Positions 14 through 46,787 of a stretch of 64,000 nucleotides of DNA are shown here, in pieces. Each line of letters starts with the position of its first letter. The first letter of the stretch is position 1. This DNA is from a phage. The stretch lies in the sequence record NC_101835.1, one strand, 5' to 3'. Position numbers and translations under genes: made by a program. The notes beneath the pieces were generated by a model, which searched no databases, had not been told where the DNA came from, and saw only the letters and a program-made list of their open reading frames with translations.

Positions 14-874
14 GTGAAAGTTGTAAAACGGGACGGTAGAGAAGAGGTCTATAACGGAATTAAGGTGATCAAGGCGGCAGAGTCCGCCTTACTTGAGTCT
101 GGACATACTGAAGAAGAAGCTTACCGGATCGCCTGCGCGGTTAATGAAGTTGTTGCTAACAATCTACCAACCGACCAGTGCACGATCTCTGTAAAAAATA
201 TCCATATCCTTGTTGAAGACGCTCTTATGGATATGGGTTTAAAATGTGCAGCCAGAGAATACATCCAGTATAGGCAGACAAGAGATAATAACAGAGAGGC
301 AGGTGGAAAACTGCTTGCAGATATTAGTGGCTTCTTGGATCGCACTTGTGATGAATTTACAAAAGAAAACGCAAATAAGCCTACCAATCATGTACACACT
401 CATCGTGACCTGCTTGCAGGCATCCTTAGCAAACACCTTGCATCAACACAGATCCTGCCAGACCGTGTCTCAGAAGAGCACAATAGAGGCTTCATCCATG
501 TGCATGATCTTGACTACTTGATCAGTCCGTTAACAAACTGTTGTTTGGTAAATTATCCAGATATGTTGGAAAACGGATTCAATATTGGTAACGCCCATGT
601 CAGTAAGCCGAAGTCAATAGGGGTTGCAACAACAATCCTTAGCCAAATCTCTAGTGCGGTAGCTAGTGCTCAATATGGTGGTCAGACTATGAGCCATATT
701 GATCATTATCTGGCACAGTATGCTGAAGCAACCTATGAGAAGAACCTTAAATTTTGCCAGGAACATTGGTTGCCAGATGCTGAGACTGTTGCAATGCAAA
801 TGACAGATAAGGACGTGTTTGACAGCATGCAGACGTTGCTTTATCAGATCAACACACTAACCTCGGTAAACGGT
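14..874 (+). CDS. nrdD: anaerobic ribonucleoside-triphosphate reductase NrdD, exon 1
   Basis: GTG start at 14 after GGAGAG; ATP-cone-like N-terminus and class III RNR core; reading frame hits a stop right after ...LTSVNG. Confidence 0.85.
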
Positions 875-1131
875 TAACAAACTGGCCGTTTTAAAACTCT
901 GCTAACCTCAGTATGAGGGGTCAGCTGATCGCTGGCTAACGGGGAACGCTAAGGCGAAAGCTATGCCAATCCCGTGACTAGCTTCACAAGGAGTGAGGCG
1001 GTTGTAACGACTAACCTTTTGGTGTAGGGATTATGGAAGATTCCGAAACGCAGAGGTCTGATTAATAATCACACGGTGTGATTTCAGGCAAGAGATAGTC
1101 TGGCCTTGTGGAAACATAAGGGTGGGGACCG
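875..1131 (+). mobile_element. group I intron in nrdD, no ORF
   Basis: Exon 1 ends on T(874), intron ends on G(1131); exon 2 resumes in frame (NG|QTPFITLSLGLDTS); P7-like agatagtctgg near 1093. Confidence 0.6.
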
Positions 1132-1431
1132 CAAACCCCTTTTATCACATTAAGTTTAGGTCTGGACACCTCAGTATTTGGTAGAATGATTACCAAAAAC
1201 TACTTGAAAGTCCACAAAATGGGTCTTGGTGAAGAACGTATCACACCTGTGTTCCCTAAAGTGCTGTTCTTCCTAGAAGATGGTGTCAACATGAACCCTG
1301 GAGATCCTAACTATGATTTGAAACGATTAGCTCTGGAATGCTCTGCAGAGCGGATTTATCCTGACTTTGTTTCTGTTCCACTAAATCGTAAAGTGACAGG
1401 CTCGACAGATGGTAAAGTAACGAGCATGGGT
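1132..1431 (+). CDS. nrdD: NrdD, exon 2
   Basis: Colinear with class III RNR (QTPF...GLGEERITPVFPK...NPGDPNYDLKRLALECS...VTSMG); frame closes 2 codons after MG. Confidence 0.8.
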
Positions 1432-2193
1432 AAACTATAACTGCTCATGTAAAATCTATCTAAACGGGGAAACTCCAGAACGGACAATCCCGTGCTAAAC
1501 GTAACAGAACTCCTGACCAAGAGGAGTCCTGAAATGAGAAAACAAATTCGTGATTTTGAAGGTTATGAAATTGACGAGATGGGCAATGTTTATTGCACCC
1601 GCTACGAAAATGAAAGAATTATTCATTCGTGGGAAGAGATAAACACAGGTTACCGTCTTGTTAGGATACGCAAGAACAAAAAGACTGTTTGCCTAAGGGT
1701 TCACAGACTTGTTGCTGAAGCGTTCTTACCAAATCCAGACAATTTACCCTATGTTAAGCACAAAGGGGACAACAGGAAAGATAACAGTGTATACAACCTT
1801 GAGTGGGGAGCTTGCCCAGACAATACGCAAGAAGGATACAACAACAACTGTTATGCTTTTTACACAAGATGCCACGGTGTGAAAGCCACCAACAAATTAA
1901 CTGGTGAGGTTTTCCACTTTAAAAGTCTGAGATGTTGTGCTGATGTTTTAGGAGTGGATAGAAAAAGAATATCTGCTATCCTGAAACGTGGTGCGCCTAA
2001 TAACTATGATTACGAGTTCTGTTACGAAATGCCTAACGACTAACCGTGATGAATGTAGCGGTGTAGGGTGTAAGCCGATGACACTCGAAATGGTAGACAC
2101 ACTAAGTGTGAAGATATAGTCTGATCTGCATGGGAACATGCAGCAGCACGTAAAGGTGCGGGGGTGGACTTGCGAACCACCCTGAACATAATG
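1432..2193 (+). mobile_element. group I intron in nrdD carrying an HNH homing endonuclease ORF
   Basis: 5' splice site after T(1431), last nt G(2193); exon 3 resumes MG|CRSFLSKY; aagatatagtc core motif at 2111-2121 downstream of the ORF. Confidence 0.6.
1492..2043 (+). CDS. intron-encoded HNH homing endonuclease
   Basis: HNH_3-type motif VHRLVAEAF...KHKGDNRKDNSVYNLEWG; lies wholly inside intron 2; true start may be the ATG near 1534. Confidence 0.75.
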   Translation: MLNVTELLTKRSPEMRKQIRDFEGYEIDEMGNVYCTRYENERIIHSWEEINTGYRLVRIRKNKKTVCLRVHRLVAEAFLPNPDNLPYVKHKGDNRKDNSVYNLEWGACPDNTQEGYNNNCYAFYTRCHGVKATNKLTGEVFHFKSLRCCADVLGVDRKRISAILKRGAPNNYDYEFCYEMPND

Positions 2194-3171
2194 TGTAGAA
2201 GTTTCTTATCGAAATATAGCGACCCTGTAACAGGCGAGGAGAAATACCTTGGCAGATTTAACTTAGGCGTTGTTAGCATTAACCTGCCAATGATTGCGGC
2301 AAAAGCTAAAACGGAAGGTGTTGATTTCTTTGCAGTTCTTGACGAATACCTGGATCTTGCATACGAGGCTCACCTTGTAAGGGTTAATCGTCTAAAAGGG
2401 GCAAAGGCAGGGCAGAACCCTATCATGTGGTGTGAAGGCGCTCTTGCTCGCCTGGATCCTGAAGAGAGTATTGATAAACTCTTCTATGACGGGTACGCTT
2501 CCATCAGTATTGGGTATATTGGTGTGTATGAAACCTGTCAGATTTTGGGCAGAGAGGGTGACAAGGCTTTAGCTCTTGGAATCCTTCAGCACATGAGAGA
2601 TGCTTGTGAGAGATACAAGAAGGAAAGTAGACTAGCGTTTAGCTTGTACGGCACCCCTTCTGAGAGTCTATGCTATAAAGCTGCAACCTGTCTGGATCGT
2701 GAATATCCTGAAGTGTTGAAGCACGAGCATGAATATCTCACCAACAGTTTCCATCAGCCAGTATGGATCAATAGCTCTCCTTTTGATAAGTGGAAGTATG
2801 AGGAAGGTTTTGCTATGATCTCCTCTGGTGGCAACATCGGATACGTAGAGACACCAAATCTGAAAAACAACTTAGATGCTTTGGAAGCTCTTGTTGATTT
2901 CGGATATAAACACATTATGTATTTTGGTATCAACCAGCCTGTGGATAAATGTCTTAAGTGTGGTTTCTCTGGTGAGTTCAGTGCAACAGCTAAAGGGTTC
3001 TGCTGCCCTGCGTGCGGATGCCACGATGAACAATATATCTCAGTGATCCGAAGAGTGTCTGGCTATCTCTCCAGCCCGAACAGTAGACCGTATAACACAG
3101 GTAAACAAGCAGAGGTTATCGAACGTGTTAAACATGTTGGGAATGTAGACTGGTGTCCGTTGAGTAAATAA
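2194..3171 (+). CDS. nrdD: NrdD, exon 3 (glycyl-radical domain)
   Basis: GRFNLGVVSINLP, C-terminal zinc ribbon CLKCG...CPACGC, glycyl radical motif RRVSGYL. Confidence 0.85.
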   Translation, partial: CRSFLSKYSDPVTGEEKYLGRFNLGVVSINLPMIAAKAKTEGVDFFAVLDEYLDLAYEAHLVRVNRLKGAKAGQNPIMWCEGALARLDPEESIDKLFYDGYASISIGYIGVYETCQILGREGDKALALGILQHMRDACERYKKESRLAFSLYGTPSESLCYKAATCLDREYPEVLKHEHEYLTNSFHQPVWINSSPFDKWKYEEGFAMISSGGNIGYVETPNLKNNLDALEALVDFGYKHIMYFGINQPVDKCLKCGFSGEFSATAKGFCCPACGCHDEQYISVIRRVSGYLSSPNSRPYNTGKQAEVIERVKHVGNVDWCPLSK

Positions 3172-3280: not shown

Positions 3281-4213
3281 ATGAGGAGACTAACAACCGA
3301 AGAGTTTATAGAAAAAGCTCAGACTATACATGGTGACAAATATGATTACTTCAAAGTGGAGTATAAAAACAACAAGACACCTGTGTGTATAATTTGTCCT
3401 GAGCACGGTGAGTTCTGGCAAACCCCTGTGGCACATGCTTTCAAGAAGCATGGTTGTCCAAGGTGTGGTGGGTCAGCGAAAAAGAACACTGAAGAGTTCA
3501 TAAAAGAGGCTATGGTTGTTCATGGGGACAAGTACGATTACTCATTAGTCAAATATGCGAACATGAGAACGCCTGTAAAAATTGTTTGCCCTGAACACGG
3601 TGTGTTTGAACAATACCCTGAAAACCACTTATACCAAAGAAACGGCTGCCCAGAGTGCTATGACTTAAGACGTGGGCAAAGTCAAGCGTTAACCCATAAG
3701 GAGCATGCTGCAATTATCCACAAAGCCAACCCAGACATAGAAATATTAGAGAAAATTGCCAATGATAACACAAAAGTGCAATGTAGGTGCAAAATTTGTG
3801 GGTATAAGTGGTCTGCTAAACCTAATAACCTAAAAAGTGGTCGTGGCTGCTGTAAATGCGCACAAAATGGATTCTTATCTCATGAGTACGGTAAACTCTA
3901 CATTATGGTTGATGACTTAGAAGTGCCAACACTTATGAAAATCGGTGTATGCGTTAAAATGCACAGGAGGAAAAATGAGGTGCTTAACAGTGCTCGTAAA
4001 TCTGGCGCAGGTGTCCACACTCTTCACGTAGTAAAAACGTGGAGCGGATCAACTCAAAACATGGTAGACTTAGAAAAATCTGTGCATAAGGCCTTCAGCA
4101 AGTATAAAATAAACTTTCCTGTAAAATTTGACGGTAGCACTGAGTTTTTCTACTACAGGCCTGAAGTGTTTGACACGGTAGAAGAGGTATACAAGAAGAT
4201 TTGTGGTAAATGA
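3281..4213 (+). CDS. T5orf172 (GIY-YIG superfamily)-like endonuclease with three N-terminal zinc-ribbon repeats
   Basis: Three repeats HGDKYDY..V.Y.N..TPV.I.CP.HG.F.Q.P..H...GCP.C; C-terminal LYIMVDD..KIGV...GSTEFF resembles T5orf172. Confidence 0.5.
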   Translation: MRRLTTEEFIEKAQTIHGDKYDYFKVEYKNNKTPVCIICPEHGEFWQTPVAHAFKKHGCPRCGGSAKKNTEEFIKEAMVVHGDKYDYSLVKYANMRTPVKIVCPEHGVFEQYPENHLYQRNGCPECYDLRRGQSQALTHKEHAAIIHKANPDIEILEKIANDNTKVQCRCKICGYKWSAKPNNLKSGRGCCKCAQNGFLSHEYGKLYIMVDDLEVPTLMKIGVCVKMHRRKNEVLNSARKSGAGVHTLHVVKTWSGSTQNMVDLEKSVHKAFSKYKINFPVKFDGSTEFFYYRPEVFDTVEEVYKKICGK

Positions 4214-4265: not shown

Positions 4266-4382
4266 ATGTCTACAGGTATTTATAAAATTTGCAAGTGCGG
4301 CTGTAGTTGCAATCTTCGTTGGTGCAAGGCACTAGACGATTTTATCTGGCATTGCCCTAAATGTGATGCGGAGTATCTATGA
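4266..4382 (+). CDS. small Cys-rich zinc-ribbon protein (38 aa)
   Basis: AGGAGG RBS; CKCGCSC...HCPKC; stop overlaps the nrdG start (ATGA). Confidence 0.4.
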   Translation: MSTGIYKICKCGCSCNLRWCKALDDFIWHCPKCDAEYL

Positions 4383-4852
4383 ACATTGTCGGATACACAG
4401 AAATATCTTACACCGAAGGGCCAGGTATTAGAACTGCCTTGTGGGTATCTGGGTGCCCACACGCTTGCCCTGGTTGCTTTAATCAGGCATTTTGGTCAAA
4501 AGATAAGGGGAGGGAGTTCACTGAAGAAGACTTGCAAAAAATCTTGTCAGATTTAGATAACCCGTCTGTGTGCGGTATCTCTCTGCTGGGTGGAGAACCC
4601 TTAGCATACTATAATGAGCCAGATATTATTAGCCTGATGGAGAAAATTAAGGAAAAATTTGGTGACAAGAAAACTATTCTTGTATATACTGGGTTCACAT
4701 TTGACCATATCTCTAGTAATGTTCTTAAACTGGCTGATATCATCATTGACGGTAAGTATGTAAAAGATTTACCAACCAAGAAACCGTTCCGAGGTAGCGA
4801 TAACCAAAGAATGTTTAAAAAAGTAGCAGGCGGTTGGGTCCAGGTAGACTAG
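4379..4852 (+). CDS. nrdG: anaerobic RNR activating protein NrdG (radical SAM)
   Basis: GPGIRTALWVSGCPHACPGCFN and GISLLGGEP motifs typical of NrdG. Confidence 0.9.
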   Translation: MNIVGYTEISYTEGPGIRTALWVSGCPHACPGCFNQAFWSKDKGREFTEEDLQKILSDLDNPSVCGISLLGGEPLAYYNEPDIISLMEKIKEKFGDKKTILVYTGFTFDHISSNVLKLADIIIDGKYVKDLPTKKPFRGSDNQRMFKKVAGGWVQVD

Positions 4853-43356: not shown

Positions 43357-43632
43357 CAATAGTTCAGGTAGGTCGTTAAGCTACCCCGCACCATTACGTG
43401 CATAGCCATACGTTTTCACGTAGGATCGGACCATCTCATATTCCTATGATAAGCAACCACAGGAATCCTCCCATTTCGACCGCACTTGCTGGTCTACTTC
43501 CTTTCGGAATGGCCTCTGAGCGTTCGCTCTTTTGAGCGCTTCGTTGCGGATTACCTTGCCATAAGGTTTAGGCTTCCCGCAGTTAAAGAGGTTATTCGAC
43601 ATAGATTACTCTATGAAGCCACAATGTTATTT
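43357..43632 (-). mobile_element. group I intron in DNA polymerase gene, no ORF
   Basis: Exon 1 ends on U after ...IIYYH, intron ends on G before DE; splicing rebuilds the YYH|DE motif; 276 nt. Confidence 0.6.
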
Positions 43633-46056
43633 ATGGTAATAAATAATACGACGAACACCTTCATCGTACCACCCACGCTTCACCATTTGGTGGTGCATAA
43701 GTATCCCAACCAAGTCACACAGCGATGCACCACCATTCTGTTGATATGCATTAAGTAAAGAGTGTTTAGATCGGGTCCAGATGGCATGACCATCAAAAGA
43801 GTAGATAAACTTCTTACCCGTTGCTTCCCAGAATTTCTCCAGATCCTCTTTACGGCCCTTAAGACCAGGGTTGGCATCCCAAAGCGCATCGATTACCCTT
43901 TGTCCCAACTCTGGAGAGATGTCCAGCATATCTGCAACTTTATCTTTTTGTGCCCCGTACATAACCCCATACGTGATAGGTTTACCGTCGTTACGGGACA
44001 CCTCTCTACCTGCTACTTTTGTATATGCCTCAGCATTGTTTTGGTGTGCGTCCCCGTTACTTACAACATCGTAATACAGGCCGTTGTCGAACTCAAAGGC
44101 ACCCCAAGCCCCGATAAGCTGCTCTAAGTTGGACCCGTCAATACCGATCTCAAAGTATCCCGGAGGAACACCCCACAGACTACGCATCTCTTTACCCATA
44201 ACCACTTTAGGAGATGGTTTAGGCATGTTTGCACAAATACTGTGTTTCTGTCTGGAAGTGTTTGTTAATCCAGAGCTTTTAGCAGGAAGCTTATGGTCAA
44301 TCTTCAAACGTGGGTGATTAAGAAGACCAGTGTCAACCTTATCCTCCTTGATTGGATCAAGTACCGATCTGCGGTTTCGCAATGATAACCATAAGACGAT
44401 ATCTTTAGCCATCTCTCCGTTCAATTTTTCAAGATTCGGACACAGGTGTCCAAACGTATCTTTCAGTTGCGGAGAAGTAATAAGTGCCCTAGCTTTTCTA
44501 CGTATTTTCCCGAATACTTCCTTTTTAATCCTTTCGGAGTTAGGAAAGCTTCGGAACTTGTGCACTGTTGTCTGAAACTTAGCATCAGTTTTGTTCCAGA
44601 AGTTGATAATTAGGTCACAATACTCTGACTCTAAAAGCTCGTCCATGTATGCATATACTCGTGCATCAACATCTGCATCAGGTAGAGCTTTCTTCTTGCT
44701 GTCTTTAGTTACATCCTTAGTTCTCCACATTGTCGGAAGCCAACCAGCACTGATCAGGTATCGCTTAATGTCGTCCTGATTGCTGATTTTCATAGGTATC
44801 TTGCAGTCAGGCATTCGCTTCTGCTGCAGATCGCTTATTGCCTGATCCATCAGCTCTTTAGGCAAAGGTTGTGGTGTGGAGGTGCCCTTAATATAACCTC
44901 TCAAGAAATCAGCCATCTTGTCGGGGTCTTTGCAGCCCATCTCTTCACACCATTTTATCCCCATCTTACTGACATCTCCTGTGGAGGTAAATGCTCTCTT
45001 AGGCGGGGCTTTGAACTCTAGAGCGCTCATGTCTACAGGATAGCCAAGCTTATCTTTTAACCATTTCCAACCATTATTAGAGATTGTCCCGTCTTGGTTA
45101 AACGGCTTTTCAGGGAACTTGGGCCGCTGAGACATTGACAGCTCTTTTAAAGGCAGTTGTGGTTCAACACGATCAGCGATTTCTTTCATCCACGCATCGC
45201 AACGGTCACGTAAAGCAATAGCTCCATCTATGTCGAAGTATACACCCTGACGGGCCTGCAGCTCCATCAGGAAGTGCTGCAGCATGCCTCGACGTAATGC
45301 GTTCTTCCAGGTGATCTTCTTGAACCCTTTCGGCTTCTCTTTGGCAGGATCGTACATAAAGTTCTGCATGTCAGATTTGCCGTAGAATACACCTTTTGAT
45401 TCCGCTACCAGTTCTTTCCAGAGCAGCTCCTGGATGATAACGTCCTCAAATACACGATCCACATACTTCCACAACGGAAGATCGCGCCAGTCATCAATTT
45501 GAACTTTCTGGTTACCAAGGGCATAGCCCCATGCCATAAGGCCGTGGGGACCAACAGGCTGCATTTTCTTAGTAACCGGGTTGAATACAGCGTCCGGACA
45601 ACCTTTTGGTAAAGGGCGATCAGGCCACAAGATTCGGCTCATCGCCAACGTATCAAACAGGTTAACCTGGTGGTCGTTGATAGTCCCCATGCATTTAGGA
45701 TCACGGAACATATCAAAATGAATACCGGATAATCTTTCCATCAGCATAAAGTCATAACTGTAGCAGTTATGGCAGTTCAAAGCTGTTGGTGACCAGTCGG
45801 AATTGCCTGTAAGCCAACCTTCCAACTCCGAAAAATCTGCTATGCGAACTTCAAAACCTTTATAAAGAGTTTTCTTTGCCAGAATGAAGTTCTTAGCCTT
45901 TTCTATATCCTCCTCGGAGTAGTGTGTGCGGTCATTTAGAGGAAGGAACAGCATAAAACGGTTCTTATTCAGCTCTTTAAACAGGCCGCAGTGATAATAA
46001 AGATCTGGATCTTCCAAAAGCCCTGAGGCCTCCAGATCGAAGCACCAATTACTCAT
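43633..46056 (-). CDS. DNA polymerase A, exon 1 (3'-5' exonuclease and polymerase motifs A/B)
   Basis: Exo I FDLEASGL; motif B RNDGKPITYGVMYGAQ; upstream of motif C colinear with T7 gp5. Confidence 0.8.
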
Positions 46057-46787
46057 ACTGTCTCCTCCTGTGTCTTCTCAGCATTCTTTCTTGCAGCTAT
46101 TGCATCGTCCCTGTTCTTGAAATACCCAAGGCATTTCCTTTTACCATCTACATAAATTCTGGCTACCCATCTTTCATGGGTTTTATCCCAATTCACCCCT
46201 GAGCAACCGCTGGTGTTATTATACTGCACGGCTCTTCCACTCTTGTGCGAAAAACCATTATCTTCGAAGAACTTTCTTGCCCACTCTGCCTCTTCAAAAG
46301 TTCTGTACTGGCCTAGCCAGACCCTTTCACCTACAGAGTCTGTGCCTTGAGCTACCCATGCCCCTCTTTCTTCAGAATAGTGCACCCCGACCCTGCCAGA
46401 TTTGTTGTTGCTACGAGGTATCTTGCAACTTTTCTTTTTGTTATCTGTAGGTTCGAGTAGTTGCAAATTTTGAATACTGTTGTCAGCCACACCACCTGTT
46501 TCCCTTATCTCCTTGATGTGGTCAACCTCATACCCTTCCGGTACAGGACCGTTAAACATTTCCCAGATTATAACGTGGGCACCTTTAGTGCAATGCTTTC
46601 CTAGACTAACCACAGGCCTGCCATCAGCATCTTGCCCCTTGTCAGCTCTGGAGCCTGCTGAAGTTTTAACATATCCTACACCGCTGCCTGCCAGAATGTC
46701 TATCTTCCAAAAAAGATTTTGACCGTCATACTCCAATATTTCTGACCACAAGTGATTAGCTACACAGTGATCTCTGAACTCGTTCAT
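46053..46787 (-). CDS. HNH-AP2 homing endonuclease (free-standing)
   Basis: HNH motif HVIIWEMF...EVDHIKEIRETGGVADNSIQNLQLL; two AP2-like repeats (GVHYSEERGAWVAQ, GVNWDKTHERWVARI). Confidence 0.75.
   Translation of the reverse strand: MNEFRDHCVANHLWSEILEYDGQNLFWKIDILAGSGVGYVKTSAGSRADKGQDADGRPVVSLGKHCTKGAHVIIWEMFNGPVPEGYEVDHIKEIRETGGVADNSIQNLQLLEPTDNKKKSCKIPRSNNKSGRVGVHYSEERGAWVAQGTDSVGERVWLGQYRTFEEAEWARKFFEDNGFSHKSGRAVQYNNTSGCSGVNWDKTHERWVARIYVDGKRKCLGYFKNRDDAIAARKNAEKTQEETV

Follow-up and report, generated by a model that had tools for sequence, protein, structure and literature searches.

The first 3.3 kb of a 64,000-nucleotide (nt) stretch of phage DNA (sequence record NC_101835.1; hereafter the window) raise the question of whether nrdD, the gene for class III anaerobic ribonucleotide reductase (RNR), is still one gene. 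It is read as three open reading frames (ORFs) at positions 14-877, 1132-1440 (in frame) and 2194-3171, separated by two inserts. We put at roughly 0.88 the probability that both inserts are colinear, precisely bounded group I introns of a subgroup-IA2-like kind. The region is that of Vequintavirus (rV5-like) E. coli myoviruses, with 94-98% identity from end to end; of the annotated records, that of Escherichia phage 241Ecol014PP is the nearest, and the genome is ~98% identical to the nearest record.

To reconstruct the gene, we removed positions 875-1131 (257 nt) and 1432-2193 (762 nt), which left one ORF of 712 codons (2139 nt) with no internal stop. Its product was as long as NrdD from the uninterrupted gene of phage naam (MN850630), with identity at 702 of 713 aligned positions (98.5%). 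Exon 1 (14..874, + strand) encodes the ATP-cone together with the N-terminal portion of the core of class III RNR (matching Pfam ATP-cone and positions 1-154 of the NRDD profile) and ends in ...TSVNG, and exon 2 (1132..1431, +) comprises 100 codons, QTPFITL...KVTSMG, covering NRDD profile positions 156-263; both are colinear with naam NrdD. Exon 3 (2194..3171, +) starts at the Cys388 codon, covers NRDD positions 264-562 and holds the glycyl-radical domain (Pfam Gly_radical; RRVSGY, Gly677). The order of the NRDD segments and the match of the 712-codon ORF to naam bear out the initial annotation, in which the three segments rejoin colinearly, and the junction bases T874, G1131, T1431 and G2193 agree with its statement that both 5' junctions follow a T and both introns end in G. 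In-frame stops (TAA 875-877 and 1438-1440) lie right behind the two 5' junctions and therefore exclude both translation through the inserts and inteins. Purifying selection acted on the nrdD exons whether or not a genome has the introns, with a ratio of nonsynonymous to synonymous substitution rates (dN/dS) of 0.06-0.12. For substitution and selection counts the exons were taken by pairwise alignment; a multi-locus MAFFT alignment misplaced ~20 nt at junction 2.

We compared the two insertion sites among related Vequintavirus genomes. All four occupancy states were seen, with identical break points throughout: neither insert in naam, intron 1 only in RudolfGeigy (where the depositors' coding sequence (CDS) is already joined), intron 2 only in EPFV3, and both introns in 241Ecol014PP. 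Intron 1 was missing from naam and EPFV3, and intron 2 from naam, RudolfGeigy and EmilHeitz, in each case at the exact insertion point. The presence of all occupancy states in relatives therefore fixes the intron boundaries to the base. At least six independent genome records show the double-intron state. Across the phage collection, intron 1 without an ORF was found in 13 records at no less than 98.8% identity (98.8-100%) with intact exons, and a longer variant with a 177-amino-acid (aa) HNH ORF in P8 and a different P7.1-P8 segment in 28 records, among them EmilHeitz, phita32 and FV3. Intron 2 was present at full length in 28 records of the same collection, including Justusliebigvirus; the window copy had 99-100% identity to those of 11 records and 84.6% to that of the Justusliebigvirus VEcB. 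The pairing of intron 2 with its endonuclease gene spans phages of different bacterial hosts, because the distant Vibrio phage F96 has both at the same site. There (L011, 1176-1945), a sunY-type intron at the same SYMG|CRS site carries a homologous HNH ORF, with ~50% amino-acid identity and the same ...EMPND* end overlapping P7. A Vequintavirus contig, IMGVR_UViG_3300010279_000001 (L013), has both nrdD introns in ORF-less form (1718-1974 and 2246-2485), its intron 2 with a short P6a as in T4. The unannotated GenBank records MG065639-MG065690 ('Campylobacter phage A147, A135, C2 ...'), labelled as Campylobacter jejuni phages, were 97-100% identical to E. coli Vequintavirus/Justusliebigvirus over nrdD and its introns, and their host label looks doubtful.

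Intron 2 (1432..2193, +, 762 nt) is classed from its sequence as a T4 nrdD (sunY)-type group I ribozyme, and its helices, their covariation and the empty sites were checked. P1 (1424-1431/1443-1450) pairs the exon segment GCAUGGGU with the guide GCUCAUGU in 8 of 8 base pairs (bp), with U1431·G1443 at the splice site. The core comprises P3 (1455-1460/2092-2097), P4 (1464-1468/1489-1493), P5 (1474-1476/1482-1484), P6 (1494-1495/2031-2032), a perfect 13-bp P6a (1500-1512/2014-2026), P7 (2038-2042/2117-2121) and P8 (2098-2110). P7.1 (2043-2062) and P7.2 (2066-2086) both covary, and P9 (2126-2143), P9.1 (2146-2159) and P9.2 (2162-2182) precede the terminal G at 2193. The core motif AAGATATAGTC, which had been placed at 2111-2121, was found there. 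A possible 5-bp P10 joins 1435-1439 to 2194-2198, and a P10-like pairing with different sequences was read in the intron of Vibrio phage F96. We aligned five ORF-deleted or ORF-less intron sequences (window, alia, Vibrio phage F96, T4 and F2; mean column identity 69%) and assessed the pairs of P1, P3-P6, P6a, P7, P7.1, P7.2, P8, P9, P9.1 and P9.2. The results showed that 94.5% of cells form standard pairs, compared with 33-42% in slid-partner controls, and that 32 of 74 pairs carry compensatory changes on both sides; none of 500 shuffles reached the observed values. By BLAST, both ribozyme halves were 79-81% identical to T-even nrdD introns. The Rfam group I model RF00028 matched the 3' part only (2038-2143, 35.3 bits), a low score because the 0.5-kb ORF in P6a splits the core. 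The ORF-bearing copy of VEcB scored likewise low (39.3 bits), and two orthologues that occupy the same MG|C site without an ORF reached 72.3 bits (Justusliebigvirus alia, L007 1455-1730) and 70.5 bits (the IMG/VR contig, L013 2246-2485); T4 sunY scored 105.3 bits. The subgroup IA2 feature, P7.1 and P7.2 between the 5' strand of P7 and the 3' strand of P3, is present in both nrdD introns.

Intron 1 (875..1131, +) measures 257 nt and contains no ORF, as had been claimed for it. We checked its helices base by base and against the minimum free energy (MFE) fold and the empty sites. P1 (868-874/885-891) pairs AAACGGU with GCCGUUU in 7 of 7 bp with U874·G885, and P3 (897-902/1050-1055) pairs CUCUGC with GCAGAG. 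They are followed by two extra hairpins between P3 and P4 (906-918 and 920-936), P4 (939-943/971-975), P5/P5a (948-966), P6/P6a (976-1003), P7 (1009-1013/1096-1100), P7.1 (1014-1023), P7.2 (1027-1044), P8/P8a (1056-1089) and P9 (1104-1121). The intron ends in G1131, and all helix pairs are canonical. The unconstrained MFE fold (ΔG -89.2 kcal/mol, z = -3.59) recovered the helices except the pseudoknotted P7, which such a fold cannot represent, and none of 200 shuffles folded as well as the native sequence. RF00028 matched over the full model length (865-1121) at 30.1 bits. Compensatory changes relative to the EmilHeitz variant were found in P3 (CUCUGC/GCAGAG to CUCUCC/GGAGAG), in P1 (exon GUAAACGGU with guide GCCGUUU to GUCAACGGU with GCCGUUG, that is, A to C in the exon and U to G in the guide) and in P9 (CCUUGUG/CAUAAGG to CCCUGUG/CACAGGG, U-A to C-G), as well as in hairpin B and P6a. 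The MAFFT alignment of the intron 1 variants was out of register at P7.1-P8, and the pairs were read directly instead. The P3 drawn by Rfam (CGCUG.../...CAGAG, with mismatches) was rejected: 897-902/1050-1055 pairs without a mismatch, covaries in EmilHeitz and is also part of the MFE fold. A match to Bacillus phage S4-2 covered 50 nt of P4-P5 only and was uninformative. The EmilHeitz intron (L005 1075-1870; also in FV3, phita32 and 25 other records) is a mosaic variant. Over its first 141 nt (P1 to P6) it shares 87% identity with intron 1 of the window, its P7.1-P8 segment is unrelated, and its P7 3' strand and P9 read as closely similar; its 177-aa HNH ORF loops out of P8, with the AUG in the P8 5' strand and the stop in J8/7. 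By this comparison we take intron 1 of the window to be the ORF-less relative of the intron found at this site in 28 other records, where an HNH gene occupies the P8 loop. Intron 1 is well supported, though less amply than intron 2.

The ORF in the P6a loop of intron 2 encodes an I-HmuI-like HNH endonuclease of 169 aa (1534..2043, +). The initial annotation had placed an HNH_3-type endonuclease at 1492-2043; its HNH family stands, whereas the start most likely lies at 1534 and the Pfam HNH_3 match is below threshold (19.8 bits, cut-off 24.8), as is that to I-HmuI_NUMOD-like (20.0 bits, cut-off 27). We therefore base the family assignment on phrog_59 'HNH endonuclease' (E 3e-32) and on the full-length match to I-HmuI (PDB 1U3E; E 1.8e-7, query residues 3-166 against chain residues 4-172 of 174), not on Pfam. 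The HNH histidine and the asparagine of NLEW (the NLxW asparagine) are conserved with I-HmuI. The mechanical ORF start, GTG 1492, falls inside P4/P6. ATG 1534 is the most likely start on the sequence features around it, because a GAGGAG Shine-Dalgarno sequence lies at 1521-1526, relatives annotate a 510-nt CDS, and the VEcB start is the same: the VEcB homologue opens with the same MRKQIRDF although its upstream sequence differs. The last nine codons and the stop (2041-2043) build the P6a 3' strand, J6/7 and the P7 5' strand (GAC UAA, 2038-2043). The dN/dS against the VEcB homologue was 0.038 (dS 1.2), which indicates that the protein is maintained by selection. A candidate Shine-Dalgarno-sequestering hairpin (1509..1527, +) pairs ACUCCU (1509-1514) with AGGAGU (1522-1527) in 6 of 6 bp and partly competes with P6a; analogous stems were read upstream of the VEcB and Vibrio F96 ORFs. 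Sequestration of the ribosome-binding site is known for T4 intron endonucleases (PMC2988022), and by analogy this hairpin may play the same role. In the ORF-less intron 2 of alia (L007 1501-1780), the ORF leader of VEcB (L010 1501-2270) is still present and runs straight into the 3' strand of P6a; this copy has the look of an endonuclease-bearing intron that recently lost the gene by deletion.

Several observations weigh against the reading of both inserts as group I introns, one of them with a homing enzyme. The covariance-model search that the initial annotation had suggested matched both nrdD introns to RF00028, but at 30.1 bits (intron 1) and 35.3 bits (intron 2) both stay under the gathering threshold of 50 bits; a scan at that threshold shows the polymerase intron only, and the nrdD introns are visible in a scan by E-value. 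The copies of intron 1 in relatives score 27-30 bits, none of those examined above 30. Covariation in intron 1 comes from only three sequences, and it is thin because pattern scans of IMG/VR for diverged homologues of intron 1 gave only one more contig. Between P3, with the UAA behind it, and P4, a stretch that consists of J3/4 alone in canonical introns, intron 1 contains a non-canonical two-hairpin element of 31 nt (906-936). In the endonuclease, a Lys stands in place of Asp74 of I-HmuI, before the catalytic His, and for this reason nuclease activity of the 169-aa protein is predicted as no more than plausible. The strong selection on the ORF could also mean a maturase-like or other role. 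Finally, in-frame starts are available for translation of the nrdD fragments, at ATG 1186, GTG 2164 (with AAGGTG upstream) and ATG 2191.

An alternative that we consider unlikely is that intron 2 splices and that intron 1 is degenerate or dependent on a factor; intron 1 would then splice poorly, or would need a protein cofactor to splice at all, leaving nrdD partly or conditionally inactive. Intron 1 has the lowest Rfam score, with 27-30 bits in every copy, a non-canonical insertion between P3 and P4, no ORF, and only two sequence variants of its ORF-less form for covariation. The low score is probably an effect of the hairpins between P3 and P4, which cause the model to misplace P3, and elements at this position have precedents (PMC2396411, PMC3873408). 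Moreover, the core helices are all intact and are recovered by the MFE fold, P1, P3 and P9 changed in compensation relative to the ORF-bearing variant, the 13 near-identical ORF-less copies sit between intact exons, and those exons are under purifying selection.

That the inserts stay in the RNA, and NrdD is made as two or three polypeptides which assemble after translation, is very improbable. Such an arrangement is reportedly found in Aeromonas phage Aeh1, where NrdA is split by mobE and the separate polypeptides assemble. The in-frame starts named above agree with it, as do database annotations that list nrdD_1, nrdD_2 and nrdD_3 as CDSs, and one HNH-associated 'intron' of phage CB7 failed to splice (PMC7344957). 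However, both inserts hold complete ribozyme cores that compensatory changes have kept, their boundaries follow the U·G and terminal-G rules, and the break before Cys388 parts residues that are contiguous in the intron-less protein. An exon 2 fragment begun at ATG 1186 would lose its first 18 codons, and the homologous T4 intron splices (PMC2988022). Inteins, group II introns and assembly artefacts, for which nothing speaks beyond the interruption of the gene, were rejected on account of the stops behind both 5' junctions, the RF00028 matches and group I core motifs (with no other Rfam family at E below ~0.5 in the stretch) and the independent records of the double-intron arrangement.

On the preferred reading of two group I introns, splicing of both is predicted from the sequence. 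Each intron would fold into its ribozyme core after transcription, with the guide in P1 holding the 5' exon and the U·G pair marking the cleavage site. An external guanosine would attack behind U874 or U1431, and the freed 5' exon would then attack behind the terminal G (1131 or 2193). The resulting joints GGU|CAA and GGU|UGU would restore a single mRNA for the 712-codon NrdD. In a mixed infection, the enzyme of intron 2 may nick or cut intron-less nrdD alleles, and repair templated by the intron-bearing genome would then insert the intron along with adjacent exon sequence (homing with co-conversion); the co-conversion tract to be expected alongside intron 2 is TGTAGAAGTTTCTTATCG. Intron 1, having no ORF, would be unable to home by itself. 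Both the endonuclease activity and homing are predictions of this scheme, and homing with co-conversion is established for T4 introns (PMC2988022, PMC3984707).

The exons around the two sites carry possible traces of such mobility. Exon substitutions between the window and naam peaked at the junctions, with 11 and 17 in the two 60-nt junction bins and 0-7 elsewhere. The ORF-less intron 1 was always accompanied by the same synonymous exon variants, ~40 nt upstream and 12 nt downstream, and the 3' exon start TGTAGAAGTTTCTT accompanies intron 2 even in Justusliebigvirus. At the intron 1 site, intron-less alleles read GGG, not GGT, and thus do not have the U needed for P1. The patchy distribution and the linked exon changes fit homing with co-conversion, and the dN/dS of 0.038 for the endonuclease ORF is a further indirect indication.

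We then compared intron 2 with the T4 nrdD (sunY) intron, which self-splices and homes (PMC2988022). The two share the host gene and the ribozyme backbone and can be aligned from P3 to P9.2 with covariation. P2 is absent from both, as read from the five-sequence alignment, P7.1 and P7.2 are present in both, and their 3' ends are similar (...ACAUAAUG in intron 2 and ...ACACAUUG in T4). The guide GCUCAUGU is identical in T4, F2 and intron 2; its pairing partner is UUAUGAGU in T4 and GCAUGGGU in the window. The insertion sites, in contrast, differ: in T4 the intron interrupts codon 180, behind CDS nt 538 (QAYE|YEV), whereas intron 2 follows codon 387, after nt 1161 (SMG|C388). The endonucleases differ as well, the GIY-YIG enzyme I-TevII being encoded downstream of P9 in T4 and the HNH ORF of the window lying in the P6a loop. 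Intron 1 gave no BLAST match to T-even nrdD introns; its site (SVNG|QTPF) lies ten codons downstream of the point equivalent to the T4 site. Intron 2 directly precedes the codon of Cys388, which aligns with Cys290 of T4 NrdD. Cys290 is reportedly the catalytic thiyl-radical cysteine of T4 NrdD (Logan et al. 1999; Andersson et al. 2001); our literature search did not confirm this.

We scanned both nrdD genes for positions compatible with the common guide, defined as U at -1 and at least six contiguous pairs to it. In T4 nrdD only two positions were found, T4's own site and MG|C290, the site of intron 2; in nrdD of the window there were four, the site in use included. These matches suggest that a change of site is constrained by complementarity to the guide. 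It is conceivable, though we hold it only as a tentative idea, that a sunY-type ribozyme moved between the two nrdD sites under its own guide sequence. Reverse splicing, or the survival of only those ectopic insertions that are competent to splice and thus compatible with the guide, would each yield guide-matching sites. Unrelated endonuclease genes would then have invaded different loops independently after the move, GIY-YIG behind P9 and HNH in P6a. If the move did take place, a protein-coding gene of a phage would offer circumstantial evidence that introns spread to ectopic sites by reverse splicing, a process whose best circumstantial cases so far come from ribosomal DNA (PMC3984707).

Further introns and endonuclease genes were found elsewhere in the window. 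The third group I intron that the initial annotation had reported, in the polymerase gene, was confirmed at 43407-43642 (- strand) with 64.7 bits against RF00028, and intron-less relatives are shorter by ~276 nt at this site in the family A DNA polymerase. The 64-kb window gave no further RF00028 match at E < 0.05. In relatives, nrdD lies between a glutaredoxin gene upstream and nrdG downstream. In the window, a free-standing endonuclease-like ORF of 310 aa (3281-4213, +; phrog_681 'endonuclease', E 4e-65) lies between nrdD and nrdG (4379-4852). Its domains are Pfam T5orf172 and DUF723/CapR/DUF4379 zinc-finger repeats. Several close relatives are without this ORF and have nrdD, ~64 nt, and then a 38-aa ORF and nrdG; many relatives match only to position 3134, and the terminal ~37 nt of nrdD seem to move together with the ORF. 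The T4 parallel is mobC, between nrdD and nrdG. An ORF of 244 aa with HNH_3 and AP2 domains (46053-46787, -) abuts the start of the polymerase ORF and, by its domains, is probably another free-standing homing endonuclease.

The nrdD introns are already in deposited genomes, are partly annotated there and belong to a well-known class. Our literature search found no paper describing the two nrdD ribozymes. The rV5 genome paper mentions terminase introns as the only ones (PMC3606486), the paper on CB7 reports splicing by reverse transcription polymerase chain reaction for HNH introns in other genes of that related phage, with none in nrdD (PMC7344957), and the BASEL paper annotated intron boundaries by comparison (PMC8594841). 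For annotation, the result means that nrdD here and in many deposited relatives should be given as one joined CDS of 712 codons rather than as three fragments and 'hypothetical' pieces. The relatives together form a compact natural series in which a single gene has no, one or two introns and either intron occurs both with and without an endonuclease gene; such a series is useful for studying homing, co-conversion and the gain and loss of endonucleases in a genetically tractable group of E. coli phages. The guide common to the T4 site and the MG|C site adds a concrete, testable case of how a group I intron may change its site. Selfish DNA of this sort is normal in large lytic phages and would not surprise specialists in phage introns.

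Among the closest known systems, besides the T4 nrdD intron, are the deposited nrdD introns at the same sites, in FV3, EmilHeitz, RudolfGeigy, 241Ecol014PP, phita32, VEcB, Justusliebigvirus alia and Vibrio phage F96. The BASEL records join the nrdD exons across intron 1, whereas most other records annotate fragments (nrdD_1, nrdD_2, nrdD_3). The window endonuclease most resembles I-HmuI, from the DNA polymerase intron of Bacillus phage SPO1: the match runs end to end, both are encoded in phage group I introns, and the window protein has a candidate C-terminal NUMOD-like DNA-binding region, at a Pfam score below the cut-off. They differ in the Asp74 of I-HmuI, which is Lys in the window protein, and in host gene and ribozyme; the I-HmuI ORF lies in P8, that of the window in P6a. 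Phage genes with several introns are represented by nrdE of Staphylococcus phage Twort, with two group I introns, and the polymerase gene of Pectobacterium phage CB7, with two HNH introns. They differ from nrdD of the window in gene, sites and ribozymes, and splicing was shown experimentally there and is predicted here. They resemble it in that one gene of a large lytic phage, for nucleotide metabolism or replication, holds several group I introns, with HNH ORFs in some and not in others (PMC7344957 and its reference 85; PMC3984707).

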